Origin: a virus | Lineage: Duplodnaviria; Caudoviricetes | Virus record (IMG/VR): IMGVR_UViG_3300042154_002208 | Reading direction: 5' to 3' (one strand) | DNA: 64,000 nt | Part shown: positions 9,237-63,945 of the stretch, piece by piece | How the letters are laid out: every line of letters begins with the position of its first letter | How positions within the stretch are numbered: position 1 is the first letter of the stretch | Made by a program: the position numbers and the translations under genes | Notes under the pieces: model-generated | The model's input: only the letters and a program-made list of their open reading frames with translations | Databases searched by the model: none | What the model was told of the DNA's origin: nothing

Positions 9237-10354
9237 GTGGTATAATGAACATGGTAGTGGGCTCTTCATTTGGCCCACCAATTCCAGTATATGCTTTGTA
9301 TGGAACTGGTCGAAACACTGATGGTCAGCTTGGTTTCGGCAATACTTCATCTCCGTATGTAAATTTTACGCAAAGTGGTTCGAGTACTGATTGGTCGGAA
9401 ATCGAGGCCACCTTTTATAGTGCAAATGCAATTAAAACCGATGGTACCATGTGGGCATGGGGATATAATGGTTATTATCAATTAGGCTTAGGCGATAGTA
9501 CAAACAGATCTAGCCCTGTTCAAATTGGATCTAGTACAAATTGGGCAAAAATTAAAGGTGGGGGAGAATTTAGACTTGCCCTCACAACCAACGGTTCTCT
9601 GTGGTCTTGGGGAAAAAATTCATATGGACAGGGCGGCAGGGGAATTACCTATATTGAGGCCGTCCCAGGTCAAGTTGGAGCGTTAACTAATTGGTCAAAA
9701 ATAGCAACCGGCGCATTCACTTCAACATCAATTAAAACAGATGGCACATTGTGGGCATGGGGAAGAAATGCATACGGTGAAATAGGTAATGGTAATACTT
9801 CAAATTATTCTAGCCCAATACAAATAGGTACATTAAATAATTGGTCCAATGTTACTGCCGGATTTTCATTTGTTGCATCGATTAAAACTGATGGTACACT
9901 TTGGGTATGGGGCAGAAATTACAAAGGGGGATTGGGGTTAGGTGATACTACAAATAGATCTAGTCCAGTACAGGTTGGCGCAGGAAACAATTGGTATTCA
10001 ATTGGTGCAGCCAGAGACTCAACCTATGGAATTAAAACCGATGGTACATTATGGGCGTGGGGTCAAAATTATGCGGGCGCACTGGGGCTCGGGGATACTA
10101 CAAATAGATCTAGTCCAGTACAGGTTGGCGCATTAACTAATTGGTCAAAAATTGATGGCAGTACTGGGGGATATCATGTTGCAGCTATTAAAACTGATGG
10201 CACCCTGTGGACATGGGGATACAATCTTTATGGACAATTAGGCCTAGGGTCGTCGGGCAATTATGCTAAAAGATCCAGTCCTGTGCAAGTTGGCTCTTTG
10301 ACCAATTGGTTAGCTGTTAGTGCAGGATATAATCATACCTTGGCATTAGGATAA
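9233..10354 (+). CDS. RCC1/BLIP-II repeat propeller protein translationally coupled to the fibre gene (putative tip adhesin)
   Basis: ATGA overlap with the fibre stop; MSGIMNMVVGSSFGPPIP then 7 RCC1-like repeats. Confidence 0.9.
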   Translation: MSGIMNMVVGSSFGPPIPVYALYGTGRNTDGQLGFGNTSSPYVNFTQSGSSTDWSEIEATFYSANAIKTDGTMWAWGYNGYYQLGLGDSTNRSSPVQIGSSTNWAKIKGGGEFRLALTTNGSLWSWGKNSYGQGGRGITYIEAVPGQVGALTNWSKIATGAFTSTSIKTDGTLWAWGRNAYGEIGNGNTSNYSSPIQIGTLNNWSNVTAGFSFVASIKTDGTLWVWGRNYKGGLGLGDTTNRSSPVQVGAGNNWYSIGAARDSTYGIKTDGTLWAWGQNYAGALGLGDTTNRSSPVQVGALTNWSKIDGSTGGYHVAAIKTDGTLWTWGYNLYGQLGLGSSGNYAKRSSPVQVGSLTNWLAVSAGYNHTLALG

Positions 10355-12305: not shown

Positions 12306-14063
12306 ATGAATAAACAACTACATTTTCTTGCAGGCATTCCCCGTTCTGGTTCTACAGTTCTCGCGGCCATTTTAAATCAAAATCCAATGACCCATGTTAG
12401 TACAACATCCGGGTTGGTTCATGCCTTAGATGGCTTGGCAAATACTTGGCATAGTGCTGGGTTATTAAATGAAAACGATGCGGATCGTTCTAAGCTGGCG
12501 GCAACAATGCGAGGGACTATTGATGCGTTCTACTCTGATGTAGACAAGCCCGTTGTTATAGATAAATCTCGCGGATGGCCTATTCCACAAATTATGGCAG
12601 CCATGTCTGCGGTTCTCGAAAGAAGACCTAAAGTTATTGCAACGGTTCGTTCCGTGCCTGATTGTGCTGCATCTTTTGTTCGTGTGGCAAAACCCACAGA
12701 CTTAGATCAACTTATCTATTCAGGTCAGTTAATGGATCACCTCAAAGCTGCTTATATTTCATTGCAAGAGGGTTATAAATTTGCCCCAGAAAATTTCCTG
12801 TTTGTTGAGTATGAAGATTTAGTTAAAGATCCCAAGAAAGAATTAAAACGTATTCATGCGTTCTTGGGCCTACCAGATTTTGATTATGACTTTGGTAACA
12901 TCGATGGTTCTACAGTATCAGAAGATGATGAGAACATTCACGGTTATGCAGGTATGCATGATATTAAGCCCGTGTTACAGCGTCAGCATAATCAAGACCC
13001 AAGAGAATTATTAAAGCATCATTATCCCTCATTCTGTCAGGGTGAGTTCTGGTTAAAGACTCCTAGAACAGTACAAGAAAAACACGATCTTGATTTTCAG
13101 CTTGAAGCAAGTACCCGTGGAGATTTTGAAGAAGGTTGGAGACTATCTCAAAAGATAGAATTAGCAGAACCATTTAACCACAGAGCAGCTTACAACAGAG
13201 GTTGGTATTACTTGAGTCAAGGCCACATCCAAAAGGGATATAGCCTAATGGATCGTGGTCGCATTGTAGGTGTGTTTGGAAACAGTAGACCAGATACCCC
13301 TATGCCTATGTGGGATGGAAAAACAAAAGGTATCGTAATGTTATACCTTGAAGGCGGACTGGGAGATCAAATACACCAAGTTCGTTATGCAAAAGTTATT
13401 GCAGATCGAGGATGTAAAGTCATGGTATGTTGTACCGGTATGCTGGCATCTTTGTTTATAGATGTTGAAGGTGTATCTGCAGTAGTACAGCACGAATCAA
13501 TTTACGGTGTGTATCATGATTTCTGGGTAGCAGGTATGTCTGCAGCAGTTCCATTGGGATTAGAACTTGAGGACTTATCGGGTGCACCTTATCTCAGAAA
13601 ACCATTCTCAATCAAAGGCAAAAAGATGCGTATCGGTTTGAGATGGCAAGGCAACCCACAATTCGAGCATGAGCATCATAAGAAGTTTCCTTCTGAGTTA
13701 ATGTTTGAAGCATTACGTGGTATTAATGCAGAGTTTATTAGCTTGCAAAGAGATGAGGGCGAAGATGAATGTCCATTCTGGGTTAGAAAAGTTCCATTAA
13801 ATACATGGGAAGATACTCGCAAAGCAGTTGCAGAATGTGATCTGGTGATTAGTTCATGCACATCTGTCAGCCACCTTGCTGGTGCTATGGGTGTAGATAC
13901 ATGGGTCGTTACTCCAATTATGCCATACTTCCTATATGCTCTTCCTGGAGACAAGACACCATACTATGATTGTTTCACCATGATGCGTCAGGAAAAATAT
14001 GGAGATTGGGAAGCACCGTTTGTGAAAATTAGAGAAAAACTTTTGGGAATGAATATACAATGA
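12306..14063 (+). CDS. Sulfotransferase - TPR-like - GT9-like glycosyltransferase fusion
   Basis: N-term GIPRSGST PAPS-binding loop, IDKSRGW; central helical AAYNRGWYYL; C-term GLGDQI, GLRWQGNP, DLVISSCTSVSHLAGAMG. Confidence 0.8.
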   Translation: MNKQLHFLAGIPRSGSTVLAAILNQNPMTHVSTTSGLVHALDGLANTWHSAGLLNENDADRSKLAATMRGTIDAFYSDVDKPVVIDKSRGWPIPQIMAAMSAVLERRPKVIATVRSVPDCAASFVRVAKPTDLDQLIYSGQLMDHLKAAYISLQEGYKFAPENFLFVEYEDLVKDPKKELKRIHAFLGLPDFDYDFGNIDGSTVSEDDENIHGYAGMHDIKPVLQRQHNQDPRELLKHHYPSFCQGEFWLKTPRTVQEKHDLDFQLEASTRGDFEEGWRLSQKIELAEPFNHRAAYNRGWYYLSQGHIQKGYSLMDRGRIVGVFGNSRPDTPMPMWDGKTKGIVMLYLEGGLGDQIHQVRYAKVIADRGCKVMVCCTGMLASLFIDVEGVSAVVQHESIYGVYHDFWVAGMSAAVPLGLELEDLSGAPYLRKPFSIKGKKMRIGLRWQGNPQFEHEHHKKFPSELMFEALRGINAEFISLQRDEGEDECPFWVRKVPLNTWEDTRKAVAECDLVISSCTSVSHLAGAMGVDTWVVTPIMPYFLYALPGDKTPYYDCFTMMRQEKYGDWEAPFVKIREKLLGMNIQ

Positions 14064-14842
14064 TATACTTTTTAAGCGGCCTGCCAAGATCAGGCTCAAC
14101 ATTGCTTGGATCAATTTTAAATCAAAATACAGAGGTATATGTTTCTCCCACAAGTCCCTTGTTAGATTTGTTATGCCTGCAAAATGAGGCATTGAACAGA
14201 GTTACTCAGCAATATACCTTTGATGTTGAAAATCAATCCGCATCCATATACACTGCGTTACCCAAAGCATATTATGAGAGCATAAAGAAACCACACATCA
14301 TTGACAAGCACCGAGCATGGGCACGCAATGTTATGCCTGCAAAGCTACACATTTCTGAAAACCCCCGGGTCATTTGTACCAATAGACCGGTTGCAGAAGT
14401 TGTCACAAGTTTTATCAAGTTACTGAATAAAGATCCAAACAATTTTATTGATGCAGCATTAAAACAAAAACGCAAGCCGATAAATACAAACACACGAGCA
14501 ATGGAACTATGGGAATCTTATATCAGAGATCCATGGGAAAGTTTACAGATTGGCTTGAAGAATTACAAAGACAATCTATATTTTGTACAGTATGATGATC
14601 TGGTACAAACTCCTCAAAGCACAATAAATAACATATATGATTTCTTGGAAATAAATAGATATGACCACAAGTTCGATAGTATCACAAATACTTGCGGTGA
14701 AGCCAAAGATACTGCATGGGGATTGAAAGATCTGCATACAATCAGAGGTAAATTAGAAAAGACCAGTGATTCTGCACAAGAAGTACTTGGCGAGAGTTTA
14801 TGTAAATATTTTTCACAATTTGATATTAAAAATGGAATTTGA
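14060..14842 (+). CDS. Sulfotransferase family protein
   Basis: GLPRSGSTLLGSILNQN, IDKHRAW, VQYDDLV; paralogous to the N-term domain of 12306. Confidence 0.8.
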   Translation: MIYFLSGLPRSGSTLLGSILNQNTEVYVSPTSPLLDLLCLQNEALNRVTQQYTFDVENQSASIYTALPKAYYESIKKPHIIDKHRAWARNVMPAKLHISENPRVICTNRPVAEVVTSFIKLLNKDPNNFIDAALKQKRKPINTNTRAMELWESYIRDPWESLQIGLKNYKDNLYFVQYDDLVQTPQSTINNIYDFLEINRYDHKFDSITNTCGEAKDTAWGLKDLHTIRGKLEKTSDSAQEVLGESLCKYFSQFDIKNGI

Positions 14843-15932: not shown

Positions 15933-17063
15933 ATGGCCCTGACCATTTCCGGTTTTACTATGACCGGTAATCTTACCGCGGTACATATTCCACCCCCTCC
16001 TCCATCCTATTACCTTTGGTCATGGGGTCGCAACAATTATGGTTTATTGGGGGTAGGAGATACTATAGATAGATCTAGTCCAGTACAGGTTGGTGCTCTT
16101 GGTAATTGGTCAACTGTTTCTGGCGGAGTTTATCATAATCTATCCATTAAAACAGATGGTACCTTATGGTCATGGGGTAGAAATTATTTAGGCTTTTTAG
16201 GTCTTGGCGAGACCACCGCTAGATCTAGTCCAGTGCAAGTAGGTGCATTAACTAATTGGTCAAAAATTGCTACAGGTGGAGGCCTACACAGTTTAGCTAT
16301 AACAACCGATGGGTATTTATGGACTTGGGGTTACAATTATTATGGACAATTAGGATTAGGTAATACTACAGGATATTCAAGTCCAAAACAGATTGGCGCA
16401 TTAACTAATTGGTCAAGTATTTCTGCAGGCGGTAATCACAGTTTAGCTATCAAAACAGATGGTACATTATGGGTATGGGGGTATAACCAGTCAGGTCGAT
16501 TGGGCCTTGGCGATACTAATAATAGATCTAGCCCAGTACAAATTGGGGCTCTAACCACTTGGTCAAGTATTTCTGCAAGCAACGGCGGCTGTGCCGCTAT
16601 CAAAACAGATGGTACTTTGTGGGTTTGGGGCGGTAATTATTTTGGGCAGTTAGGATTAGGCAATACCACATATTATTCAAGTCCCAAACAAGTTGGCGCA
16701 TTAACTACTTGGTCAAGTATTTCTGCAAGCGGCGGCGGCTGTGCCGCTATCAAAACAGATGGTACTTTGTGGGTTTGGGGTAGAAATTTTGGGGCAGGTT
16801 CTTTAGGGTTAGGTGATACTATATCTAGATCTAGTCCAGTACAAATGGGGGCATTAACCAATTGGGCAAGTATTTCTGCAGGAGAACTTTTTTGTGTGTC
16901 CATTAAAACAGATGGTACACTATGGTCATGGGGACACAATGCGTATGGCCGGGTTGGAGATGGTACAACTGTTCTTAAATCTAGCCCAGTACAAATTGGA
17001 TCATCAACTACCTGGTCAAGTATTTCTGCAGGTAGCGCTACTCCATTAGCTATTAAATCTTAA
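15933..17063 (+). CDS. RCC1/BLIP-II propeller paralogue (array 1/9)
   Basis: MALTISG...PPPPP + 7 repeats; GAGGTG RBS. Confidence 0.9.
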   Translation: MALTISGFTMTGNLTAVHIPPPPPSYYLWSWGRNNYGLLGVGDTIDRSSPVQVGALGNWSTVSGGVYHNLSIKTDGTLWSWGRNYLGFLGLGETTARSSPVQVGALTNWSKIATGGGLHSLAITTDGYLWTWGYNYYGQLGLGNTTGYSSPKQIGALTNWSSISAGGNHSLAIKTDGTLWVWGYNQSGRLGLGDTNNRSSPVQIGALTTWSSISASNGGCAAIKTDGTLWVWGGNYFGQLGLGNTTYYSSPKQVGALTTWSSISASGGGCAAIKTDGTLWVWGRNFGAGSLGLGDTISRSSPVQMGALTNWASISAGELFCVSIKTDGTLWSWGHNAYGRVGDGTTVLKSSPVQIGSSTTWSSISAGSATPLAIKS

Positions 17064-17082
17064 TAAAAATTAAAAGAACAAA

Positions 17083-18213
17083 ATGGCACTAACAATTTCA
17101 GGCGTAAGAATAAACGGAGCATTGTCTGCGGTGCATATTCCACCTCCTCCGCCACCTGCGTATTACCTTTGGGCTTGGGGTGCTAATGATTACGGTGAGT
17201 TAGGCCAAGGCGATTATAATATTAATAGATCTAGTCCAGTACAGATTGGTTCATTGACCAATTGGTTAAGTATTTCAGCCGGTGGTTATCACAGCGCGGC
17301 CACCTTCCCAAACGGGACTATATGGACATGGGGCAGTAATTATGTCGGCCAATTAGGGTTAGGAAATACTACAAATAGATCTAGTCCGGTACAAGTTGGT
17401 GCCTTAACCACATGGTCAAGTATTTCTACTGGCCAATACCACAACCTGGCCGTTAAAACAGATGGTACCATGTGGACATGGGGTGGAAATAGTTATGGCA
17501 AATTGGGGTTAGGCGATACCGCAAATAGATCTAGTCCAGTACAAATTGGCGCTTTAACTACTTGGTCATCTGTGAGTGCAGGAGGAAATATCAGTGCGGC
17601 AATTAAAACAGATGGTACATTGTGGGCGTGGGGTAGAAATTATCACGGGTCATTGGGCCAAGGTAATACTACAGATAGATCTAGTCCAGTACAAGTTGGT
17701 TCTCTAACTAATTGGTTGTCTGTTGCTGCTGCATATGTTTGTTGTCACGCAATTAAAACAGATGGTACCTTATGGTCATGGGGTAGAAATTATGCTGGCG
17801 TCTTGGGTTTAGGAGGTACTACAAATATTTCCAGTCCAGCACAAGTTGGTGCATTAACAAATTGGTCAACTGTATCTAACAGAGAACACTATTGTGCAGC
17901 AATTAAAACAGATGGTACATTATGGTCATGGGGCAGGGGTTCTCAAGGCAAATTAGGGTTAGGCGACATTACCAATAGATCCAGCCCGACTCAGGTTGGT
18001 GCATTAACTACTTGGTTAAGTGTTTCTGCAGGATATTCTCACAGCGCTGCTATTAAAACTGATGGTACTCTGTGGTCGTGGGGTAGCGGCGGCCAAGGTA
18101 GATTGGGCCTAGGTGATACTACATCTAGATCTAGTCCAACTCAAGTTGGAGGATTAACTACTTGGTTATATATTGCTGCAGGAAGTACTTTCACCGCCGC
18201 TATTAGTAACTAA
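17083..18213 (+). CDS. RCC1/BLIP-II propeller paralogue (array 2/9)
   Basis: MALTISG...PPPPPP + 7 repeats. Confidence 0.9.
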   Translation: MALTISGVRINGALSAVHIPPPPPPAYYLWAWGANDYGELGQGDYNINRSSPVQIGSLTNWLSISAGGYHSAATFPNGTIWTWGSNYVGQLGLGNTTNRSSPVQVGALTTWSSISTGQYHNLAVKTDGTMWTWGGNSYGKLGLGDTANRSSPVQIGALTTWSSVSAGGNISAAIKTDGTLWAWGRNYHGSLGQGNTTDRSSPVQVGSLTNWLSVAAAYVCCHAIKTDGTLWSWGRNYAGVLGLGGTTNISSPAQVGALTNWSTVSNREHYCAAIKTDGTLWSWGRGSQGKLGLGDITNRSSPTQVGALTTWLSVSAGYSHSAAIKTDGTLWSWGSGGQGRLGLGDTTSRSSPTQVGGLTTWLYIAAGSTFTAAISN

Positions 18214-18229
18214 TTAAAAGAAGAACAAA

Positions 18230-19351
18230 ATGGATCTAATCGGAATAACTATATTTGGCGGAGTCAACATTCAGCCTCCGCCTCCGCCACCTCCTGTGCC
18301 CACATACTATCTATGGTCTTGGGGCAGAAATTATAAAGGTGTAATGGGTCTAGGTGATACTACCAATAGATCCAGTCCCAATCAAGTAGGCTCAATGAGT
18401 GATTGGTTATCTTTGGCTGCAGGAAGATACCATATGACAGCAATTAAAATCGATAACACCTTATGGTCTTTTGGTCAAAATTCAAGCGGTCAATTGGGGC
18501 TAGGCGATACCACCGACAGATCAAGTCCAACTCAAATCGGAGCATTGGCAACCTGGGCGTCATTAAGTTGCGGGGATCAGCACGCCATAGCAATTAAAAC
18601 AGATGGTACCTTGTGGGCATGGGGATACAATGGTATCGGCGGCTTGGGGCTAGGAAATTCTACAAGTTATTCAAGCCCAATGCAAGTTGGCGCGCTAACA
18701 ACTTGGTCAAGTATTGGTACCGGCGGATACAATTCGTTTGCTGTTAAAACCGATGGTACATTATGGACATGGGGATATAATGCACAAGGACAACTGGGTC
18801 TAGGCAATACCGCAGCTAGATCTAGTCCAGTACAGATTGGTGCATTAACTACTTGGTCAAAAGTTGATGGTGGAGATAAGCACACCATGGCAATTAAAAC
18901 AGATGGTACCTTGTGGGCATGGGGTGCTAGCAATCAGGGCCAAACGGGAACGGGAAGTTCTTCGTCTAGCCCAGTACAAGTTGGCGCATTGACAACCTGG
19001 GCAACATTAGGTATAACATATTTGTCATCCTCGGCAATTAAAACCGATGGTACATTATGGATGTGGGGTTCCAACGAGTCGGGACATTTAGGCCTAGGCA
19101 ATACTACCAATCAAGGTAGTCCGGTACAAGTGGGCGCGCTGACTACTTGGTCAAAAGTTAGTTTAGGACAATTCCATACTATGGCAGTTAGAACCGACGG
19201 CACATTATGGACATGGGGATTCAATGTTCAGGGTCAACTTGGTATTGGTAACACCACATATTTTTCCAGTCCAAAACAAGTTGGTGCATTAACTACCTGG
19301 TTGAATGTTACTGCAGGATATAGACATTCAACTGCAATTACATCGCAATAA
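18230..19351 (+). CDS. RCC1/BLIP-II propeller paralogue (array 3/9)
   Basis: MDLIGITIFGG...PPPPPPP + 7 repeats. Confidence 0.9.
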   Translation: MDLIGITIFGGVNIQPPPPPPPVPTYYLWSWGRNYKGVMGLGDTTNRSSPNQVGSMSDWLSLAAGRYHMTAIKIDNTLWSFGQNSSGQLGLGDTTDRSSPTQIGALATWASLSCGDQHAIAIKTDGTLWAWGYNGIGGLGLGNSTSYSSPMQVGALTTWSSIGTGGYNSFAVKTDGTLWTWGYNAQGQLGLGNTAARSSPVQIGALTTWSKVDGGDKHTMAIKTDGTLWAWGASNQGQTGTGSSSSSPVQVGALTTWATLGITYLSSSAIKTDGTLWMWGSNESGHLGLGNTTNQGSPVQVGALTTWSKVSLGQFHTMAVRTDGTLWTWGFNVQGQLGIGNTTYFSSPKQVGALTTWLNVTAGYRHSTAITSQ

Positions 19352-19380
19352 CCCGTTATACTAATTAAAAGAACAAAAAA

Positions 19381-20514
19381 ATGCCATTAATTTTTTCAGG
19401 TATAACCACAAAAGGTAGTTTCGAGATGGTGTATACTCCACCACCGCCTCCCGAACCAACATCTTATCTATGGTCGTGGGGTAGTGGAAGCGACGGTCGA
19501 CTAGGTTTAGGTAATACTACAAGTTACTCAAGTCCAAAACAAATTGGTTCGTTAGGCTCTTGGTTGAATATTGCTGCCGGGTATAATCACGGCATGGCCC
19601 TCAAAACAGATGGTACACTTTGGTCATGGGGTTACAATGATACGGGTCAGTTAGGTTTGGGGGATCTTACAGATAGATCTAGTCCAGTACAGATTGGCGC
19701 AGGAACCACTTGGTCAACAATTGAAGGAAGTTTCTTCTACAACATAGCCATTAAAACAGATGGTACCATGTGGTCATGGGGTTATAATAATAGCGGTCGA
19801 TTGGGGTTAGGCAATACTACAAGTATATCTAGTCCAGTACAAATTGGTGCATTAACTACTTGGTCAAAGATTAATGCAGGTGGTCAGCATACCATGGCCA
19901 TTAAAACAGATGGTACCATGTGGGCATGGGGAGTTAATCAACACGGTGCACTGGGGCTAGGCGATACCACAAATAGATCTAGTCCAGTACAAATTGGTTC
20001 ATTAACTACTTGGTTAAATATTGCTGGAGGGTACAGGGCCAGTATGGCCGTCAAAACAGATGGTACGTTATGGTCATGGGGGATGAATGCTTTTGGTCAG
20101 TTAGGATTAAATAATTATACATATTATTCTAGCCCAAAACAGGTAGGGGGTCTAACCAATTGGTTAAGTGTTGCTGGGGGTAAATATGCTCACAGCGTGG
20201 CCCTGAAAAATAATGGCACCTTGTGGGGATGGGGTCGCAATTATATAGGAATGTTAGGTTTAGGTGGTACCACTCAATATATAAGCCCAGTTCAAGTTGG
20301 TGCTTTAACCAATTGGTCAAGTATTGATGCCGGTAGAAGTCACAGCGTGGCCATTAAAACAGATGGTACCATGTGGGCTTGGGGTGGAAATGGATCCGGT
20401 CGATTGGGGTTAGGTGATACCACAAATAGATCAAGCCCAACACAGATTGGTTCATCAACTAATTGGTCAAAGATTGATGCAGTTGGTACGTTCACCTTGG
20501 CTATTAGCTATTAA
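19381..20514 (+). CDS. RCC1/BLIP-II propeller paralogue (array 4/9)
   Basis: MPLIFSG...PPPPP + 7 repeats. Confidence 0.9.
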   Translation: MPLIFSGITTKGSFEMVYTPPPPPEPTSYLWSWGSGSDGRLGLGNTTSYSSPKQIGSLGSWLNIAAGYNHGMALKTDGTLWSWGYNDTGQLGLGDLTDRSSPVQIGAGTTWSTIEGSFFYNIAIKTDGTMWSWGYNNSGRLGLGNTTSISSPVQIGALTTWSKINAGGQHTMAIKTDGTMWAWGVNQHGALGLGDTTNRSSPVQIGSLTTWLNIAGGYRASMAVKTDGTLWSWGMNAFGQLGLNNYTYYSSPKQVGGLTNWLSVAGGKYAHSVALKNNGTLWGWGRNYIGMLGLGGTTQYISPVQVGALTNWSSIDAGRSHSVAIKTDGTMWAWGGNGSGRLGLGDTTNRSSPTQIGSSTNWSKIDAVGTFTLAISY

Positions 20515-20530
20515 TAAAAAGAAAAACAAA

Positions 20531-21652
20531 ATGGCATTTACTTTTTCAGGCTTTGCAACCAACGGCAGTTTTAATCTGGTATGTCCTATACCTCCTCCAC
20601 CTCCCGCATATTATTTATGGGGATGGGGCAAAAATACCGATGGTACCGTAGGTGATAACACAACTACTGGTAGATCTAGTCCTGTGCAAGCCGGCACATT
20701 AACCACTTGGTTGAATGTTTCTGCAGGTGAATATCATGGTTTAGCACTTAACTCCGATGGCACCATGTGGTCTTGGGGAAGAAATAGTCAAGGTCAATTA
20801 GGGTTAGGTAATACTACACGTGTATCTAGTCCGGTGCAGGTTGGTGCTTTAACCACTTGGTCAACTATCGTAGGCGGGTCACAACACAGCTTAGCAGTTA
20901 AAACAGATGGCACATTGTGGTCATGGGGATATAATGCTTATGGTAAACTTGGACAGGGAGATACTATATCTAAATCTAGTCCAGTACAAATTGGTGGATT
21001 AACTAATTGGTTAAATGTTGCTGCTGGATATAGTTCCTCAGCTGTTAAAACAAATGGTACATTATGGACTTGGGGTTTTGGTATCTATGGTTTATTAGGG
21101 CTAGGTAATACTACACATAGATCTAGTCCAGTTCAAGTTGGTGCATTGACCAATTGGTCTAGCTCGACATTTGGATATCTACATTGTATGGCAATTAAAA
21201 CAGATGGCACGATCTGGGCATGGGGATATAATCCTAACGGACAACTTGGGTTAGGCAATACTACAAATATATCTAGTCCAGTTCAAGTTGGATCCGATAC
21301 AAATTGGGCAAGTATTGAAGCAGGTGAATATCAGACTTTAGCAATTAAAACCAATGGTACATTATGGTCATGGGGATGGAATAATTTGGGCAGACTGGGA
21401 CTCGGTAATACTACAGCATATTCAAGTCCAAAACAAATTGGTGCATTAACTACTTGGTCAAAAGTTTCTACGGGCTATCATGTCGCTGCAATTAAAACGG
21501 ATGGCACTCTTTGGGCTTGGGGAAGAAATACCGATGGTGAATTGGGTCTAGGTGATACTACAGATAGATCTAGTCCAGTTCAAATTGGCGCATCAACTGC
21601 TTGGTTAAATGTTTCGCTGGCTAATTATCATAGTATAGCAATCTCAAATTAA
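20531..21652 (+). CDS. RCC1/BLIP-II propeller paralogue (array 5/9)
   Basis: Start moved to ATG 20531 (MAFTFSG) by analogy with paralogues and the conserved spacer. Confidence 0.9.
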   Translation: MAFTFSGFATNGSFNLVCPIPPPPPAYYLWGWGKNTDGTVGDNTTTGRSSPVQAGTLTTWLNVSAGEYHGLALNSDGTMWSWGRNSQGQLGLGNTTRVSSPVQVGALTTWSTIVGGSQHSLAVKTDGTLWSWGYNAYGKLGQGDTISKSSPVQIGGLTNWLNVAAGYSSSAVKTNGTLWTWGFGIYGLLGLGNTTHRSSPVQVGALTNWSSSTFGYLHCMAIKTDGTIWAWGYNPNGQLGLGNTTNISSPVQVGSDTNWASIEAGEYQTLAIKTNGTLWSWGWNNLGRLGLGNTTAYSSPKQIGALTTWSKVSTGYHVAAIKTDGTLWAWGRNTDGELGLGDTTDRSSPVQIGASTAWLNVSLANYHSIAISN

Positions 21653-21666
21653 AAGAAGAACAAAAA

Positions 21667-22803
21667 ATGGCAGTCACATTTTCAGGCGGCGGATACGCAG
21701 GGGTAACAATTAACATAATTCAACCCACTCCTCCTCCTCCTACATACTATTTATGGGCATGGGGAGATGGCGGTAGCGGGCGATTGGGGTTAGGCGATAC
21801 CGCAAATAGATCTAGTCCAGTTCAAATTGGCGCATTAAGTAATTGGTTAAGTATTTCTATAGGCGATTACCATGGAGTTGGGCTTGACGTTGATAAAAAA
21901 CTTTGGACGTGGGGTAATAATTCCATAGGTGCTTTAGGTTTAGGTAATACTACAAATTATTCTAGCCCAGTACAAGTTGGCGCTTTAACTAACTGGGCAA
22001 TTCTGCGTGGGGGCGGAGAAGGTACAGCAGCTATTAAAACAGATGGTACCATGTGGGTATGGGGAGACGGCCGGTTTGGCAGGCTTGGGCTCGGCGATAC
22101 CGCAAATAGATCTAGTCCTACTCAGGTTGGAGCATTGACTAATTGGGCATCTATAAGTAACAGCTCTTGGAATATTTATGGAATTAAAACCGATGGCACA
22201 TTATGGGCATGGGGATATGGCTCAAGTGGCCAACTAGGCGATGGTACTACTATAAATAAATCTAGCCCAATACAAATTGGAGCATCTACAGATTGGAGCA
22301 AATGTGAAGGTGGAAACGGAATTGCGGGAGCGATTAAAACTAACGGCACACTATGGATGTGGGGATATAATTACAGAGGCAATTTAGGATTAGGCGATAT
22401 TACATATAGATCTAGTCCAGTGCAGGTTGGCGCTTTAACTAATTGGTTGCATATATCTGCTTCTAGATATAGTACAGCATCTATTAAAACAGATGGTACC
22501 TTGTGGATATGGGGTAGCAATTATGCTGGAACATTGGGCTTAGGTGATACTATACATAGATCTAGTCCAGTACAAGTTGGCGCACTAACTACTTGGTCAA
22601 AACTTGCTATTCCACAAGCAACATATTCGCGTGCAGCAATTAAAACAGATGGTACCTTGTGGACGTGGGGTAGCAATGGTAGTGGCCAGTTGGGGGTGGG
22701 AGATACTGCGAATAGAGGTAGTCCAGTACAAGTTGGGACCAATACAAACTGGGTAGAAGTAGTTCAAGGTAACGCCTCAAAGTTTGCATTAACCCCACAA
22801 TAA
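21667..22803 (+). CDS. RCC1/BLIP-II propeller paralogue (array 6/9)
   Basis: MAVTFSG...PTPPPP + 7 repeats. Confidence 0.9.
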   Translation: MAVTFSGGGYAGVTINIIQPTPPPPTYYLWAWGDGGSGRLGLGDTANRSSPVQIGALSNWLSISIGDYHGVGLDVDKKLWTWGNNSIGALGLGNTTNYSSPVQVGALTNWAILRGGGEGTAAIKTDGTMWVWGDGRFGRLGLGDTANRSSPTQVGALTNWASISNSSWNIYGIKTDGTLWAWGYGSSGQLGDGTTINKSSPIQIGASTDWSKCEGGNGIAGAIKTNGTLWMWGYNYRGNLGLGDITYRSSPVQVGALTNWLHISASRYSTASIKTDGTLWIWGSNYAGTLGLGDTIHRSSPVQVGALTTWSKLAIPQATYSRAAIKTDGTLWTWGSNGSGQLGVGDTANRGSPVQVGTNTNWVEVVQGNASKFALTPQ

Positions 22804-22820
22804 TTAAAAAGAAAAACAAA

Positions 22821-23951
22821 ATGGCATTTACTATTTCAGGAATCGGTGGATACTCGGGTATATCATTTACCACTACTCAACCACCACCACCTCCGATATA
22901 TTATCTTTGGTCATGGGGTCAAGGTATTAGTGGTCGATTGGGGTTAGGTAATACTACAGATTATTCTTCTCCAAAACAGATTGGTGCATTGACCACTTGG
23001 TCAAGTATTGCTGCAGCAGAAGGTTGGGCAATGGCTCTAAAAACAGATGGCACAATGTGGTCTTGGGGCAGAAATTATGCAGGTCAATTAGGCTTAGGTA
23101 ATACTATATATTATTCTTCTCCAAAACAGATTGGAGCTTTAACTACTTGGGCAAATATTAGTACAGGGAAAGCGTCTAATATGTTTGCTATAAAAACCAA
23201 TGGTACCTTATGGGCGTGGGGTGGTAATTATGGTTACAAGTTAGGATTGGGCAATACTACATCATATTCTAGTCCAGTACAAGTAGGTTCCTTAACTGAT
23301 TGGGCAATTATAATTTCACTTGCTGGAAACGGTGCTGCAGCAATTAAAACCAATGGTACTATGTGGTCATGGGGACAAGGATCTAACGGGCAATTGGGAT
23401 TGGGTAATACTACAAATACATCTAGCCCACAACAAATTGGCGCTTTAACCACTTGGTCAAATATTACTAATATTAGATTTGGTGCCCTTGCAACTAAAAC
23501 AGATGGAACTTTATGGACATGGGGCGCTAATGGTTACGGCGAACTTGGATTGGGCGATACTACAAATAGATCTAGTCCTGTACAGATTGGCGCATTAACT
23601 ACTTGGCAAAGTGTTTCCGCTGGGTATTATCACGGCCTGGCTGTAAAAACAGATGGTACTTTATGGTCTTGGGGAAGAAATGCAGTAGGCTCATTGGGGT
23701 TAGGAGATACTACAAATAGATCTAGTCCAGTACAAGTTGGTGCATTAACTACTTGGTTAAATATTTCAGGAGGTGTTGAACACAATCTGGCCATTAAAAC
23801 AGATGGTACCATGTGGTCATGGGGCGATAATCAATCTGGTCGATTGGGTATAGGCGATACCACAAATAGATCTAGTCCAGTGCAGATTGGATCATTAACA
23901 AATTGGGCAAATGTTTCTGCAGGTGGTTCTTTCAGCCTGGCTATCGGTTAA
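22821..23951 (+). CDS. RCC1/BLIP-II propeller paralogue (array 7/9)
   Basis: MAFTISG...PPPPP + 7 repeats. Confidence 0.9.
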   Translation: MAFTISGIGGYSGISFTTTQPPPPPIYYLWSWGQGISGRLGLGNTTDYSSPKQIGALTTWSSIAAAEGWAMALKTDGTMWSWGRNYAGQLGLGNTIYYSSPKQIGALTTWANISTGKASNMFAIKTNGTLWAWGGNYGYKLGLGNTTSYSSPVQVGSLTDWAIIISLAGNGAAAIKTNGTMWSWGQGSNGQLGLGNTTNTSSPQQIGALTTWSNITNIRFGALATKTDGTLWTWGANGYGELGLGDTTNRSSPVQIGALTTWQSVSAGYYHGLAVKTDGTLWSWGRNAVGSLGLGDTTNRSSPVQVGALTTWLNISGGVEHNLAIKTDGTMWSWGDNQSGRLGIGDTTNRSSPVQIGSLTNWANVSAGGSFSLAIG

Positions 23952-23977
23952 AAAAAAAATAAAAAAGAAGAACAAAA

Positions 23978-25105
23978 ATGGCATTTACTTTATCTGGCAT
24001 AAGCGACATAACCGGTCTTAACCTCACAACTACTCAACCTGTGCCTCCAGAATTTTACTTATGGTCATGGGGTTACCATGGTGGATATGGGCAACTCGGT
24101 TTAGGTGATGCTACTATAAGTAGATCTAGTCCAACACAGGTTGGCTCATTAACTAATTGGAGCAGTACTGCAGGAAAATACCTTCTGTCAATTGCCGCAA
24201 AAACCGACGGCACCATGTGGTCATGGGGTTACAATTCACAAGGTCGATTGGGGTTAGGCGATACCATACATAGATCTAGTCCTGTACAAATTGGAGCATT
24301 AACCACTTGGGCAAAAATAACCGCAATAAATACTGGCGGAGTTGCTATTAAAACAGACGGCACCTTATGGACATGGGGCGGTAATTATTACGGGGCATTG
24401 GGCGTAGGTGATACCATACATAGATCTAGTCCGGTACAAGTTGGTGCATTAACTACTTGGTTAAATATTTCAGGTGGTACATATCACACCATGGCAACTA
24501 AAACAGATGGCACCCTATGGATGTGGGGTAGAAACTATCATGGTCGATTGGGGTTAGGTGATACTAATAATAGATCTAGTCCAGTACAAGTTGGCGCATT
24601 AACTAATTGGTTAAAAGTTTCTGCGGCATATAACAATGCGGCCATCAAAACAGATGGTACAATGTGGGTATGGGGTCGCAATAACACCGGGCAATTGGGT
24701 TTGGGAGATACCACAAGCAGATCTAGTCCAACACAAGTTGGTGCTTTAACTACTTGGTTAAATGTTGCTGCAGGCACTTATACTAACATGGCCATTAAAA
24801 CAGACGGCACCATGTGGTCTTGGGGCAGGAATGCATACGGTCAATTGGGTTTAGGTAATACCACAGATAGATCTAGTCCAGTACAAGTTGGCGCATTAAC
24901 TAATTGGTCAAGTGTTAGTAGTCTAGGCCTCACCACGCATGCAATTAAAACAGATGGTACCATGTGGGCATGGGGCTCTAATGCAGATGGTAAATTAGGA
25001 TTAGGCAATACTACAAACTATTCAAGCCCTAAACAAATTGGCGCACGCACTACGTGGATTAGTGTTACGAACACAGACTACGTGATCCTGGCAATCTCAA
25101 ATTAA
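23978..25105 (+). CDS. RCC1/BLIP-II propeller paralogue (array 8/9)
   Basis: MAFTLSG...PVPP + 7 repeats. Confidence 0.9.
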   Translation: MAFTLSGISDITGLNLTTTQPVPPEFYLWSWGYHGGYGQLGLGDATISRSSPTQVGSLTNWSSTAGKYLLSIAAKTDGTMWSWGYNSQGRLGLGDTIHRSSPVQIGALTTWAKITAINTGGVAIKTDGTLWTWGGNYYGALGVGDTIHRSSPVQVGALTTWLNISGGTYHTMATKTDGTLWMWGRNYHGRLGLGDTNNRSSPVQVGALTNWLKVSAAYNNAAIKTDGTMWVWGRNNTGQLGLGDTTSRSSPTQVGALTTWLNVAAGTYTNMAIKTDGTMWSWGRNAYGQLGLGNTTDRSSPVQVGALTNWSSVSSLGLTTHAIKTDGTMWAWGSNADGKLGLGNTTNYSSPKQIGARTTWISVTNTDYVILAISN

Positions 25106-25120
25106 AAAGAAAAACAAAAA

Positions 25121-26242
25121 ATGGCATTTACTTTTTCAGGCTTAAATTTCGTCGGCGACGTTAGCGCGCAAGCAGTCTTTCCCACTCCCGAACCTTATTT
25201 GTGGGGGTTTGGGCACAATGCTTATGGTCAGTTGGGAGATGGTACCACTACAAATAGATCTAGTCCAGTACAGGTTGGCGCAGGAACCACTTGGTCAAAG
25301 ATTGAGGCAGGTCAAAGTCAAAGCGTAGCCCTCAAAACAGATGGTACCATGTGGTCATGGGGTAACAACAGCGCGGGTCGATTAGGGTTAGGCGATACTA
25401 CCAATAGATCTAGTCCAGTACAAATAGGTTCTCTAACTACTTGGTCAAAAATAATCAGTAAAGTTCATTCGTTAGCTATAAAAACGGATGGATCTTTGTG
25501 GGGCTGGGGTAGAAATGGTTTCGCGGGCTTAGGTCTAGGCAATACCACATATTATTCAAGTCCAAAACAAATAGGCGCATTAACCAATTGGTCGAATATT
25601 TCTGCACGTGGCCATAGTCTGGCAATTAAAACAGATGGTACCTTGTGGTCTTGGGGCGGCAATAGTTCTGGCAATCTAGGCCTAGGTAATACTACAGGTA
25701 TATCTAGTCCACAACAAGTTGGTTCATTGACAAATTGGCTAAGTGTAGCTGCCGGCGGATATTTTAGTTCAGCTGTCAAAACAGGTGGTACATTATGGGC
25801 ATGGGGAAGTAATCAATTTGGGCAATTGGGTTTAGGTGATACCGCAAATAGATCTAGTCCAGTACAGATTGGATCATTGACAAATTGGTTAAGTGTTGCC
25901 GGAGGCCAATATCATATTTCAGCAATTAAAACCGACGGCACTCTATGGACATGTGGCCGCGGCAGCAGTGGCGCGCTTGGCGTAGGCGATACCGAAAATA
26001 GATCTAGCCCAACTCAGGTTGGCGCATTAACTACTTGGTACATCAGCTCAAGCAGCAACGGTTTTAATTATTCAATTAAAACAGATGGGACATTGTGGAC
26101 ATGGGGCAGAAATGATTTCTATGGACAACTTGGTTTAGGTGATACTGCAAATAGATCTAGCCCAGTTCAGGTCGGAGCATTAACTAATTGGACAAATATT
26201 GCCACTGGAGAAATTCATGGCTTAGCAATTTCAACTGGATAA
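25121..26242 (+). CDS. RCC1/BLIP-II propeller paralogue (array 9/9)
   Basis: MAFTFSG...PTPEP + 7 repeats. Confidence 0.9.
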   Translation: MAFTFSGLNFVGDVSAQAVFPTPEPYLWGFGHNAYGQLGDGTTTNRSSPVQVGAGTTWSKIEAGQSQSVALKTDGTMWSWGNNSAGRLGLGDTTNRSSPVQIGSLTTWSKIISKVHSLAIKTDGSLWGWGRNGFAGLGLGNTTYYSSPKQIGALTNWSNISARGHSLAIKTDGTLWSWGGNSSGNLGLGNTTGISSPQQVGSLTNWLSVAAGGYFSSAVKTGGTLWAWGSNQFGQLGLGDTANRSSPVQIGSLTNWLSVAGGQYHISAIKTDGTLWTCGRGSSGALGVGDTENRSSPTQVGALTTWYISSSSNGFNYSIKTDGTLWTWGRNDFYGQLGLGDTANRSSPVQVGALTNWTNIATGEIHGLAISTG

Positions 26243-26266: not shown

Positions 26267-26274
26267 AATAAATA
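26267..26274 (+). promoter_or_regulatory. T4-like late promoter variant AATAAATA
   Basis: GGCAATAAATA upstream of the GGAG RBS and ATG 26306. Confidence 0.55.
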
Positions 26275-26305
26275 ATAAACAATTTTAACATGGAGTGATT
26301 AAATT

Positions 26306-27097
26306 ATGACACAGAGAATTTTAGTAATGGGTTTACCAGGCTCAGGCAAGACATATCTTTCCCAGTATATTTTAGAATACCTGCAAAGAGAAAAGAAAAC
26401 AGTTTCTTGGCTCAATGCTGATGATGTTCGTAAAAAATACAATGATTGGGATTTCAGTAAAGAGGGTCGCATTCGTCAAAGTTTACGTATGCGAGAACTT
26501 GCTGATGGCATGACAACTGATTATGTTATTTGCGATTTTGTTGCACCTTTACCCGAGATGCGAAACAATTTCAAAGCAGACTGGACTGTATGGGTTGATA
26601 CAATTGAAAAAGGCCGCTTTGAAGATACCAACAAGGCATTTGTGCCGCCAGATGTATATGACTTTAGAATAACAGAACAAAATGCAGAGAAGTGGGCAGA
26701 GTTTATTGTGGCTCACATTTATGATAACAGACGCAGACCAACATTTGACTGGCAAAAAGAAAGCGCGTTGCTATTAGGCAGATATCAACCGTGGCACCCT
26801 GGGCATAGAGCATTGTTCGAAAGAGCAATTGCCAAGACAGGACAAGTTATTATACAAGTACGCGATTGTCAAGGTTGGAATGGTTCTAATCCTTTCGAAT
26901 TTAGGAAAGTTAAAGAATTTATTGAGAGAGATCTCGATACTTTATTTCAAGGGCAATATCAAATTATGTTAGTTCCTAACATAACCGAAATTGTTTATGG
27001 AAGAGATGTTGGCTACAGAATAACGCAGGAAACATTTTCTGACGAGATACATTCTATTTCTGCTACGAAAATTCGTAAAGAAATGGGATTGCAATAA
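26306..27097 (+). CDS. cysC: Adenylylsulfate (APS) kinase fused to an HxGH nucleotidyltransferase domain (possible minimal PAPS synthase)
   Basis: GLPGSGKT P-loop, LNADDVR, EGRIRQ, DFVAP (CysC-like); C-term GRYQPWHPGH, YGRD, ISATKIR. Confidence 0.75.
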   Translation: MTQRILVMGLPGSGKTYLSQYILEYLQREKKTVSWLNADDVRKKYNDWDFSKEGRIRQSLRMRELADGMTTDYVICDFVAPLPEMRNNFKADWTVWVDTIEKGRFEDTNKAFVPPDVYDFRITEQNAEKWAEFIVAHIYDNRRRPTFDWQKESALLLGRYQPWHPGHRALFERAIAKTGQVIIQVRDCQGWNGSNPFEFRKVKEFIERDLDTLFQGQYQIMLVPNITEIVYGRDVGYRITQETFSDEIHSISATKIRKEMGLQ

Positions 27098-27116: not shown

Positions 27117-27761
27117 ATGGATTCTTTTGTATATCAATGGACTAATTTAACATTAGGTAAAATTTATATAGGTTTCCATAAAGGAACAGAAGACGATGGA
27201 TATGTTTGTTCATCTTCTTCTGAAACCTTTTGGCGAGAATTTAAAGATCCTAACAATGTTTGGGAAAGAAAAATTATATCAAAAGGCACAATGAAGGAAT
27301 GTCAATTATTAGAATCTGCATTATTAGATTCAATTGATATTACATCCGACTCGGTGTATAATAATCGAAATTCATTAATGTTTAATTTTAATGAAGAGGT
27401 TCGCGCTAAATTAAGAGCTGCTGCCCTGGAAAGAGGAAAAGACCCTGAATATAGAAAAACACAATCGGAAAGAACAAAGGCAAATTGGGCTGCAAATCCT
27501 GAACGTAGGATTTTGCAAAGTCAAAAAGCAAAGCAACAAATAAGAACTGATATAACTAAAGAAAAAATAAAAATAGCAAGATCTAAACAAGTTATAACCC
27601 CTGAGTCAAGAAATAAAGCGGCCGCAACTATTAAAAACACCCCCAACGTAATGTGTCCGCATTGTAATAAAGTTGGAAGATATTTGGGCAGTATGAAAAA
27701 GAGACATTTTGAAAAATGTACATATAATAAAATAATGGAAAAATCCATTATAAATAACTAA
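27117..27761 (+). mobile_element. Free-standing Seg-like GIY-YIG homing endonuclease with NUMOD3-like basic C-terminus
   Basis: FVYQWTN...IYIGFHKG...DGYVCSS, E..LL, YNN; basic helical repeats and terminal CPHC. Confidence 0.75.
27749..27756 (+). promoter_or_regulatory. T4 late promoter TATAAATA
   Basis: Exact consensus in the last codons of the endonuclease, upstream of 27782. Confidence 0.7.
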
Positions 27762-42348: not shown

Positions 42349-43479
42349 ATGCAAATTACAAATGTTAACTTCGCTCTTGGCGGAATGAATATACAGACAT
42401 GGGATCCTCCTGTTCCAACGCTTTACCTTTGGGAATGGGGATATAATCCTTATGGCAATTTAGGATTAGGCGATACTACAAATAGATCCACTCCTACACA
42501 GGTTGGAGTATCTACTAATTGGAATTCTCTTTACGTTACTTCTTATAGAAGTATAGCAACTAAATCTGACGGTACGTCATGGGTGTGGGGATATAATGGA
42601 TATGGTCAATTAGGATTGGGCGCTGGCGGAAATGTATCGAGTCCAGTTCAGTTAGGTTCTGCGAATGAATGGTCAAGTTTCTCAGTAGGCCACAGTACAA
42701 ATCACACGATGGGGATAAAACCAAATGGGACTTTATGGGCATTTGGAAACAATAACCAAGGACAATTAGGTTTAAGTAATACTACAGGGTATTCAAGTCC
42801 AAAACAAGTTGGATTATTAACTAATTGGTTGGCTGCTGCTACCGGATATAGACATACGGTAGCTGTTAAAACAGATGGTACTTTGTGGGCATGGGGCAGT
42901 AATCAAGTATATCATCTAGGCTTGGGTGATAATACAAATAGATCTAGTCCAGTACAAGTTGGAAGTGCAACCAATTGGTTAAAGGTTGTTGCAGGTAAAT
43001 GGCATTCTTATGCAATTAAAACTGACGGAACCATTTGGTCTTGGGGACAAAATTATAAAGGTGCAACAGGTTTAAATGAGGGTGGTACTAACGCAACCTC
43101 AACTCCTACAAAAATAGGAACATTAACTAATTGGTTAAATGTTTCTGCAGGAGAGTATACTGCGTACGCTATAAAAACAGATGGAACCTTATGGGCATGG
43201 GGTTTAGGCACTAGCGGGCAATTAGGATTAAGTGGTACTACAAATAGATCAAGTCCAACACAGGTTGGCGCATTGACTAATTGGTTAAGTGTTGCCGGCG
43301 GAGCATACTGGGCAGCGGCGGTAAAAACCAATGGTACGCTGTGGACATGGGGATATAATCCTTATGGTAATTTAGGATTAGGCAATACTACAGATAGATC
43401 AAGTCCAGTGCAAGTAGGCGCATTAACTTCTTGGACAACAATAGGTGCAGGCTCCTATAATGGCGCAGCAATAGGATAA
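42349..43479 (+). CDS. Orphan RCC1/BLIP-II propeller paralogue
   Basis: MQITNVNFALGGMNIQTWDPPVP + 7 repeats. Confidence 0.9.
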   Translation: MQITNVNFALGGMNIQTWDPPVPTLYLWEWGYNPYGNLGLGDTTNRSTPTQVGVSTNWNSLYVTSYRSIATKSDGTSWVWGYNGYGQLGLGAGGNVSSPVQLGSANEWSSFSVGHSTNHTMGIKPNGTLWAFGNNNQGQLGLSNTTGYSSPKQVGLLTNWLAAATGYRHTVAVKTDGTLWAWGSNQVYHLGLGDNTNRSSPVQVGSATNWLKVVAGKWHSYAIKTDGTIWSWGQNYKGATGLNEGGTNATSTPTKIGTLTNWLNVSAGEYTAYAIKTDGTLWAWGLGTSGQLGLSGTTNRSSPTQVGALTNWLSVAGGAYWAAAVKTNGTLWTWGYNPYGNLGLGNTTDRSSPVQVGALTSWTTIGAGSYNGAAIG

Positions 43480-62776: not shown

Positions 62777-63172
62777 ATGACAATGCACATCGTTGGACCC
62801 TGGTTATCTACAACCGGAAAAAAGAAATCAAAAGTTAAATTTAAAAGTGCAGACGCGGCACGTAATGCTCGAGATCTTGCACAGGAGTGGTCTTCTATGA
62901 AAAAGAAGTGGGGCGTTGAGATTGATGATACAAAACGCAAACGTGCAATGGCGGCCGAGATATATTCCCCTCCGGTATCTTCTAATCCCCGAGGCGTTAC
63001 ACATAAAAATATTCAAAGTTTAAATGATAAAATAACAGGTGCGGTTTCTAGCAAGCCAGCATCCGTGTATACTGGAACAAAGGTTCTAGGTATTGGTACA
63101 ATGCACAAGTCTAATGCTGTCCCTATCTTTAGTGATGACGAGGCAAAAGAAATTTCTACAATGAGGCGATAA
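62777..63172 (+). CDS. Conserved phage hypothetical protein
   Basis: C-term YTG....GIGTMHKSNAVP motif. Confidence 0.75.
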   Translation: MTMHIVGPWLSTTGKKKSKVKFKSADAARNARDLAQEWSSMKKKWGVEIDDTKRKRAMAAEIYSPPVSSNPRGVTHKNIQSLNDKITGAVSSKPASVYTGTKVLGIGTMHKSNAVPIFSDDEAKEISTMRR

Positions 63173-63945
63173 TGAAAAAAATAGTTTTAGTCACAGGCGG
63201 ATTTGATCCTGTGCATTCTGGGCATATTGCATATTTTAAAGCAGCCAAAAAGTTAGGAGACTACTTGGTTGTAGGCGTAAACTCTGACGCATGGCTAACA
63301 CGTAAGAAAGGCGCACCGTTTATGCCAGTATGGGAGCGGGTTGCTTTATTACAAGAATTTAAATGTATCGATCAGGTTGTATTCTTTGATGATAATGCAG
63401 ATGCTGACGGAAGCGCCAAACACTTTATAAAAGAAACATTAGATATCTGGCCAGACTCTGAGGTTATCTTTGCTAATGGTGGGGATAGAACTGATAAGAA
63501 TATTCCAGAAATGGATATACAAAATCCTCGTCTAAGTTTTGCGTTTGGCGTAGGTGGTGAAGATAAAAAGAATTCTAGCTCTTGGATTTTGCAAGAATGG
63601 AAAGCTCCTAAGACCTCGCGCGCGTGGGGATATTATCGTGTTCTACATGAACAAGGTAAAGATGTTAAAGTAAAAGAATTAACGGTTGCTCCTGGCAAAT
63701 GTTTAAGTATGCAACGACATAAAGATCGAAGCGAGCATTGGTTTGTATCAGAAGGAACCGCTACGGTTTATACGTTAAATTGTAGCACAGATGTTGAACT
63801 AATTGGAACATTCAATAAATTTGAAAATCTCCATATTGGTAAAACAGAGTGGCATCAGCTTTGTAATGAAACTGAGTCACCATTGAAGATTGTCGAAATC
63901 CAGTATGGCGACAATTGTATTGAAGATGATATTGAAAGGAAATAA
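63172..63945 (+). CDS. Cytidylyltransferase (RfaE/HldE-II-like) fused to a mannose-6-phosphate isomerase type II-like cupin
   Basis: TGGFDPVHSGH, GVNSD, FANGGDR; C-term RAWGYY, LSMQRH..RSEHW, EIQYG...EDDIER. Confidence 0.85.
   Translation: MKKIVLVTGGFDPVHSGHIAYFKAAKKLGDYLVVGVNSDAWLTRKKGAPFMPVWERVALLQEFKCIDQVVFFDDNADADGSAKHFIKETLDIWPDSEVIFANGGDRTDKNIPEMDIQNPRLSFAFGVGGEDKKNSSSWILQEWKAPKTSRAWGYYRVLHEQGKDVKVKELTVAPGKCLSMQRHKDRSEHWFVSEGTATVYTLNCSTDVELIGTFNKFENLHIGKTEWHQLCNETESPLKIVEIQYGDNCIEDDIERK

Follow-up and report, generated by a model that had tools for sequence, protein, structure and literature searches.

A candidate one-chain PAPS synthase of 263 residues, with a NadM-related second domain, in a T4-like freshwater phage

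A 263-aa protein encoded by a T4-like freshwater phage most likely acts like a PAPS synthase yet stands outside the Sat and PAPSS families. Under the explanation that we favor, with a probability of about 0.7, it is a PAPS synthase on one chain, with a second half that represents a new, NadM-derived ATP sulfurylase family, and it probably supplies two sulfotransferases encoded 11.5 kb upstream. The gene lies in a window of 64,000 nucleotides, the whole stretch of DNA analyzed here, from a Caudoviricetes virus (IMG/VR record IMGVR_UViG_3300042154_002208) that also carries primase, ThyX, NrdAB, and RNase H genes. An earlier note on this DNA had proposed a miniature bifunctional PAPS synthase. 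Gene context speaks for this proposal (a reverse fusion with CysC, occupation of the sat position in SAR11, and genomes in which other sulfate activation was not found), but the sulfurylase half is not of the Sat type as had been supposed.

The open reading frame occupies positions 26306..27097 on the plus strand, as first reported, and opens with ATG, with a GGAG ribosome-binding site 10 bases 5' of the start (26292-26295, plus strand, a motif match). Its product matches PHROG 10255 over the full length (E 3.5e-50; residues 3-261 on profile positions 2-229/230), and its AlphaFold2 model has a pLDDT of 92 and a pTM of 0.84. Members of PHROG 10255 from the Xylella phages Sano and Salvo and the Stenotrophomonas phage DLP6 have both domains and the same motifs, with no difference in architecture. 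Proteins of this type are very common in phages, with 8000 or more clusters at 90% identity, and come mainly from aquatic viral contigs; atlas searches returned the family alone, under automatic names. PHROG 10255 is annotated only as 'kinase', and its C-domain is without any described function. A T4-late-promoter-like ATAAATA motif (26268-26274, plus strand) precedes the gene and suggests expression late in infection; a search for a sigma-70 site upstream of the gene found none.

The N-domain (residues 1-143; 26306..26734, plus strand) is read as a putative trimmed APS kinase subfamily from its profile matches and modeled fold. Pfam APS_kinase (PF01583) matches residues 5-91 (E 4e-10; 40.3 bits against a cut-off of 21.1), covering only profile positions 5-94 of 152. 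The best 30 Foldseek matches all contain an APS kinase, and in an exhaustive fold search (VIA) five APS-kinase-containing entries lead with Z of 18.3-15.8, the next class, gluconate kinase, reaching 14.4. With CysC (PF01583, TIGR00455; PDB 4rfv and 2yvu) the domain shares the fold (Z 18.3, rmsd 1.7 over 129 residues), the P-loop (residues 9-16), and the residues on the APS side, and profile alignment to canonical CysC (probability 99%) also covers N37/D39, R42, F50, R55, Q58, and F78-P81. R42, F50, R55, and the F-x-x-P segment presumably line the APS site. Unlike CysC, the domain has only ~140 aa, NADD replaces DGDN, and the lid is ~19 residues shorter, the full RDPKGLY and FTG segments being missing; the 263-aa protein scores 29 bits against the TIGR00455 equivalog cut-off of 138.7. 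Both Asp residues of the DxD motif (DGDN) are required in human PAPSS1, the first being Asp87 (PMC8528679). Among 54 relatives of the phage domain, the first position is Asn in 34, as here, and Asp in 16, and the second Asp is kept in 51. The CysC-like kinase of the earlier note is therefore borne out by fold and Pfam match, but as a non-canonical form in motif and lid.

The C-domain (residues 144-263; 26735..27094, plus strand) is a single 120-aa domain of the HxGH class I nucleotidyltransferases and, judging from its model, folds, and partners, a candidate small ATP sulfurylase. Folded alone, it is modeled with a pLDDT of 95, and Pfam CTP_transf_like matches residues 156-186 slightly under its cut-off (E 5e-4). 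The motifs quoted from the initial inspection are all there, on the plus strand: HPGH within GRYQPWHPGH (residues 158-167; 26777..26806), which aligns as a NadM-like lead-in plus HxGH in place of Sat's QxRNPxHxxH; IVYGRDVG (229-236); and ISATKIR (251-257; 27056..27076), a motif of the SGTxxR type. From strand order, the YGRDVGY loop (26996..27016) would occupy the position of Sat's GRD loop. Across 62 relatives with 30-86% identity, G232, R233, G236, and R257 are invariant, and R159, Q161, H164, H167, and R186 are each kept in 61. R186 (26861..26863), a family-specific Arg that ends strand 2 where NadM has GSAQ, is a candidate sulfate-binding residue. HxGH, GR, and SATxxR of the Sat motif set first proposed are thus conserved, but the Asp of the GRD loop varies, being present in 52/62 relatives and replaced in SAR11 copies, which read GRG or GRK.

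Hallmarks of Sat are QxRN, whose Gln and Arg bind sulfate, along with HxxH, GRD, SGTxxR, and three domains (PMC3779200). Like Sat (PF01747; Allochromatium 4dnx, Thermus 1v47), the C-domain has HxxH (H164, H167), a GR(D) loop, an S(G/A)TxxR motif, and a Rossmann-like core (Z 8.6 to 1v47), and its relatives occur in the sat position ahead of aprMBA; the SATxxR form is common to NMNAT and hence not diagnostic. It differs in length (~120 against 350-400 aa), in lacking the N-terminal barrel and domain III of the three-domain Sat subunit, and in having GR[FYW]Q at the position of QxRN, a motif that is not present. PF01747 does not match the 263-aa protein at E 0.1, and the family profile did not find Sat chains down to E 10. 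The nearest folds are NadM/NMNAT (Z 10.3 and 10.1) and PPAT (10.0), with Sat chains ranking below them (Thermus Sat 8.6, others 5.5-6.2); Sat chains are absent from the best 50 Foldseek matches, which alone excludes nothing. Structural comparison with both groups accordingly upheld the NadM/NMNAT resemblance already suspected and placed Sat further away. We also considered the C-domain as a shortened Sat, in line with the initial suggestion of a Sat lacking its PUA-like domain, and rule this out on the absence of QxRN and of any PF01747 or Sat profile match, the domain being nearer to NadM/NMNAT and PPAT by sequence as well as by fold.

The best sequence matches of the family profile are archaeal NMNAT (E 1.7e-11) and NadM-Nudix. 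With archaeal NMNAT and bacterial NadM (PDB 1f9a, 1ej2, and 2qjt; TIGR01527), which are also its best fold matches, the domain shares the GR-aromatic-QP-aromatic-HxGH start, a GRFQPFHxGH-type motif, as well as an NP motif behind strand 2 and, towards the C-terminus, the GY and SxTxIR motifs. It differs in its second-substrate region, which is shorter by 25 residues, in having Arg for GSAQ and GR for the strand-4 loop, in scores far below the curated NMNAT cut-offs (NF002243, 26.4 against 127 bits; TIGR01527, 23.9 against 181.2), and in neighbors that are related to APS, not to NAD. The segment from strand 3 to the GY motif has 9 residues, compared with 34 in M. jannaschii NMNAT (1f9a). In NMNAT this segment binds NMN and carries the nicotinamide-stacking Trp, and the argument about the NMN pocket combines this role with the measured deletion. 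As the C-domain is neither Sat (no QxRN) nor NMNAT (below cut-offs, Arg186, 9 versus 34 residues), we infer that it forms a NadM-related family of its own, in which the ATP-cleaving motifs are intact and the second site appears to be reduced and arginine-rich. A tree of the domain was short and poorly supported, and the structure by itself cannot name the substrate.

Metazoan PAPSS1/2 (PDB 1x6v) and Sat-CysC fusions (Aquifex 2gks, Thiobacillus 3cr8) likewise unite an APS kinase and an HxGH nucleotidyltransferase in one chain. The phage protein has the PAPSS-type order, with the APS kinase preceding the sulfurylase-type HxGH domain, and its proposed product is again PAPS for sulfotransferases. 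It differs in having 263 instead of 530-630 aa, a shortened kinase lid, and a second domain that is not Sat-type, with no QxRN, N-terminal barrel, or C-terminal domain III. The C-domain would use HxGH, the GR loop, and SATxxR to bind ATP and would pass the AMP moiety on to sulfate, which yields APS and pyrophosphate; since QxRN is absent, sulfate is likely to be bound by the family-specific arginines R159, R186, and R233. The fused kinase would convert APS and a second ATP into PAPS, which would pull the unfavorable sulfurylase step forward, and the phage's own sulfotransferases would consume the PAPS, probably late in infection. The natural reaction of an HxGH enzyme linking ATP and APS is that of ATP sulfurylase, and this activity of the C-domain probably evolved separately from Sat.

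Both sulfotransferases mentioned in the earlier note are present on the plus strand, and each is a probable PAPS user: a 585-aa protein (12306..14063) with the sulfotransferase in its N-terminal ~250 aa (PF13469, E 2.3e-17; PHROG 27463) and a 260-aa protein (14060..14842; PF13469, E 1.1e-15; PHROG 27463). The C-terminal ~330 aa of the former have no Pfam, PHROG, or NCBIfam match. The 263-aa protein would probably feed the two enzymes, although their genes are not adjacent to its own, lying beyond nine RCC1 genes. Sulfotransferase is the most frequent neighbor family of the candidate gene, found within 5 kb in 47-49 of 181 loci and within 300 bp in 17. Among long viral contigs, PF13469 exceeds its cut-off in 9/15 carriers of the gene compared with 2/23 controls (p 0.001), the control phage contigs having been picked by core genes and being unmatched in lineage. 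Restricted to contigs at least 90% complete, the figures are 4/5 and 2/8 (p 0.10), too small a set, and sulfotransferase-like genes occur in all five of these carriers. A phage-derived profile detected sulfotransferase-like genes less than 4 kb from the candidate gene in two more carriers. Among the controls, phage G318 has a sulfotransferase and lacks the candidate gene, and in the isolated Stenotrophomonas phage DLP6, which has the full gene, a sulfotransferase was looked for and not found. The 270 records of Chi-like phages contain the gene only in the 11 that form the Sano/Salvo group, where a sulfotransferase-like gene is close by in 11/11; this group is one clade and counts as a single event.

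Individual phages show various arrangements. Phage Sano (L081:14374-16143) has a sulfotransferase-like gene, gp33, annotated as hypothetical, followed by the NADAR gene gp34 and the candidate gene. A kinase-only form occurs two genes ahead of a divergent sulfotransferase-like ORF in phage RsoM2USA (L083:7992-9435), whose genome gave no C-domain match at E 0.001, and another stands beside a sulfotransferase-like gene at locus L093. The jumbo phage contig G342 (525 kb, the IMG/VR contig of L071) encodes the full domain twice, as distinct copies, and one of these adjoins two sulfotransferase-like genes. Family P0181 is a 489-aa fusion of a sulfotransferase-like N-terminal part, a trimmed kinase, and a C-domain without the HxGH histidines. 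In family P0207, DUF2061 is fused to the C-domain; DUF2061 adjoins the candidate gene in 19 of the 24 loci that have it (neighbor cluster of L020:8976-9182) and may be part of the same sulfate module.

The partners of the C-domain point in the same direction outside the phage arrangement. A marine family of ~310 aa (P0208) has the reverse fusion, with the C-domain N-terminal to a canonical CysC (Pfam APS_kinase, E 5.7e-63). In an alphaproteobacterial genome (G494, one contig of 2.06 Mb), the gene for the fused protein stands immediately ahead of the sole sulfotransferase found, and searches of this contig for Sat, CysD, AprA, and another CysC found none. At another locus (L090) the gene after the candidate is CysQ, over its cut-off. 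Two alphaproteobacterial carriers have CysD-like genes besides. A crude motif scan of 1892 neighboring ORFs found no NAMPT or Nudix motifs; cytidylyltransferase and glycan-related genes are common neighbors too.

The C-domain was found in 240/301 sampled SAR11 genomes, Sat in 13/301, and aprA in 244/301. Its usual SAR11 form is a separate 124-aa domain gene directly behind a 135-aa kinase gene; at two SAR11 loci it follows a longer CysC-type gene. SAR11 copies are 47-54% identical to the window's C-domain (47-49% for those in the slot before aprM) and have the same motifs. In one lineage of 13 genomes (L535-L537, L562-L570, and L572), a kinase-free 126-aa homologue stands directly before aprM-aprB(-aprA), ~50-80 bases ahead of aprM on the same strand, AprM being named in SAR11 by position and length. 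The Allochromatium sat-aprMBA operon has sat in this place (PMC3779200), and the stand-alone SAR11 domain would run in reverse, converting APS and PPi into ATP and sulfate. In another lineage of 11 genomes, the kinase and domain pair abuts the 3' end of the apr operon. APS is the one metabolite common to PAPS-dependent sulfation and sulfite oxidation, two unrelated chemistries. In the main Pelagibacter clade (L580-L587), the slot before aprM holds a 132-aa HIT protein, which supports the slot as that of an APS-consuming enzyme, though of no particular reaction; the unlinked kinase and domain pair of this clade may serve PAPS synthesis only.

The joint distribution of domain and aprA in SAR11 (227/13/17/44, with 227 genomes having both and 44 neither) overstates their co-occurrence, and we rejected this table as independent evidence: in two clades the genes lie in physical linkage, and gaps in the assemblies add to the effect; recA is missing from 8/36 double-negative genomes and 2/24 positive ones. 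On a recA tree, joint absence is scattered, with 12 changes compared with a mean of 16.5 and a minimum of 10 in shuffles, a result that does not separate loss from gaps. One genome (G128, L573) has kept the domain while aprMBA is gone, and the domain there directly precedes the TauE-family gene that normally lies behind aprA and a 116-aa ORF. A 116-aa ORF without NCBIfam match lies behind aprA in the SAR11 loci examined (L222-L224, L539-L549, and L553-L556). In core SAR11 loci (L188-L217) the pair is found among methanethiol oxidase-like, DddP-like M24, Rieske oxygenase-like, enoyl-CoA hydratase-like, and YeeE/YedE sulfur transporter-like genes.

Three other explanations were weighed against a PAPS synthase. 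The C-domain could handle APS or PAPS without being an ATP sulfurylase, serving as a regulatory or channelling module or in APS hydrolysis or phosphorolysis, in which case the phage protein would be an APS kinase working on host APS. The context evidence indicates APS and no particular reaction; moreover, the HIT protein alternates with the domain in the aprM position, kinase-only forms occur beside sulfotransferase-like genes (L093 and RsoM2USA), and in P0181 the C-domain, fused with a sulfotransferase-like part and a kinase, has lost its histidines. We nonetheless regard this explanation as unlikely, as both histidines, R159, R233, and R257 are conserved in 61-62 of 62 relatives, a pattern that fits alpha-beta ATP cleavage with PPi binding, and no other route to APS was found in G494.

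The NMN substrate left as an alternative in the earlier note is now unlikely, even though the NadM-like sequence and fold were confirmed. More broadly, the C-domain could be a small NMNAT, PPAT, or other adenylyl- or cytidylyltransferase for an organic phosphate, its link to APS kinase being historical. Besides the archaeal NMNAT and NadM-Nudix sequence matches and the NadM, NMNAT, and PPAT folds, the NADAR gene directly upstream in Sano fits such a role. The scores far below NMNAT cut-offs, the 9 residues in place of 34 in the second-substrate segment, and the lack of NAD-salvage neighbors in the scan of 1892 ORFs make it very unlikely. Three carrier phage contigs also encode a separate protein of 336-392 aa, the size of NadM-Nudix, that matches the profile weakly, and across several distinct arrangements the domain is paired with APS enzymes. 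Least probable in our judgment is that the kinase has itself departed from APS and that both domains make another nucleotide-activated metabolite, such as one used to modify virions or DNA. The altered DGDN and short lid, the absence of a detectable sulfotransferase in DLP6, and the common cytidylyltransferase and glycan-related neighbors would agree with this, but the N-domain is closer in fold to APS kinases than to any other small-molecule kinase, R42, F50, R55, and F-x-x-P agree with CysC, CysQ and sulfotransferase neighbors recur, and the C-domain is also paired with canonical CysC.

For the PAPS synthase reading, a wider version has odds slightly better than even: the 120-aa domain, descended from the NadM branch, would join Sat and CysDN as a third type of ATP sulfurylase. 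It would provide thousands of aquatic phages with PAPS of their own making and would be, in most SAR11, the overlooked enzymatic link of APS with ATP and sulfate, from which cells could obtain ATP by sulfite oxidation in lineages where it heads aprMBA. In the literature searched, mostly outside subscription journals, we found no description of a small or NadM-like ATP sulfurylase. Phage 'cysC' is listed in metagenome papers among the genes of assimilatory sulfate reduction (10.1101/2020.02.13.942896; PMC13584214). If the proposal is true, many of these would be complete PAPS synthases for phage sulfotransferases, turning phage sulfation into a testable pathway, and an ATP sulfurylase family invisible to current Sat and CysD profiles would be added. 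It would also touch the published puzzle of P. ubique, which reportedly has aprBA, cysC, and cysQ and lacks sat and cysDN (PMC5069961), and would affect genome-based calls of organisms as unable to activate sulfate. A 263-aa PAPS synthase would further lend itself, by its small size, to the enzymatic production of PAPS as a reagent.

The candidate gene follows nine tandem RCC1-repeat genes (~375 aa each; 15933-26242), which separate it from the sulfotransferases, and is followed directly by a homing endonuclease gene (PHROG 314; 27117-27761) whose own ATAAATA motif overlaps the stop codon of the 263-aa gene. Further RCC1 copies lie at 9233-10354 and 42349-43479, and RCC1 genes are the second commonest neighbor family of the candidate gene (40 loci). 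Given these neighbors, one may speculate that sulfate is accepted by virion proteins or by glycans. The window also encodes, at 63172-63945, a fusion of a cytidylyltransferase-like domain (HldE domain II) and a cupin, a second HxGH enzyme that is unrelated to the family studied here.
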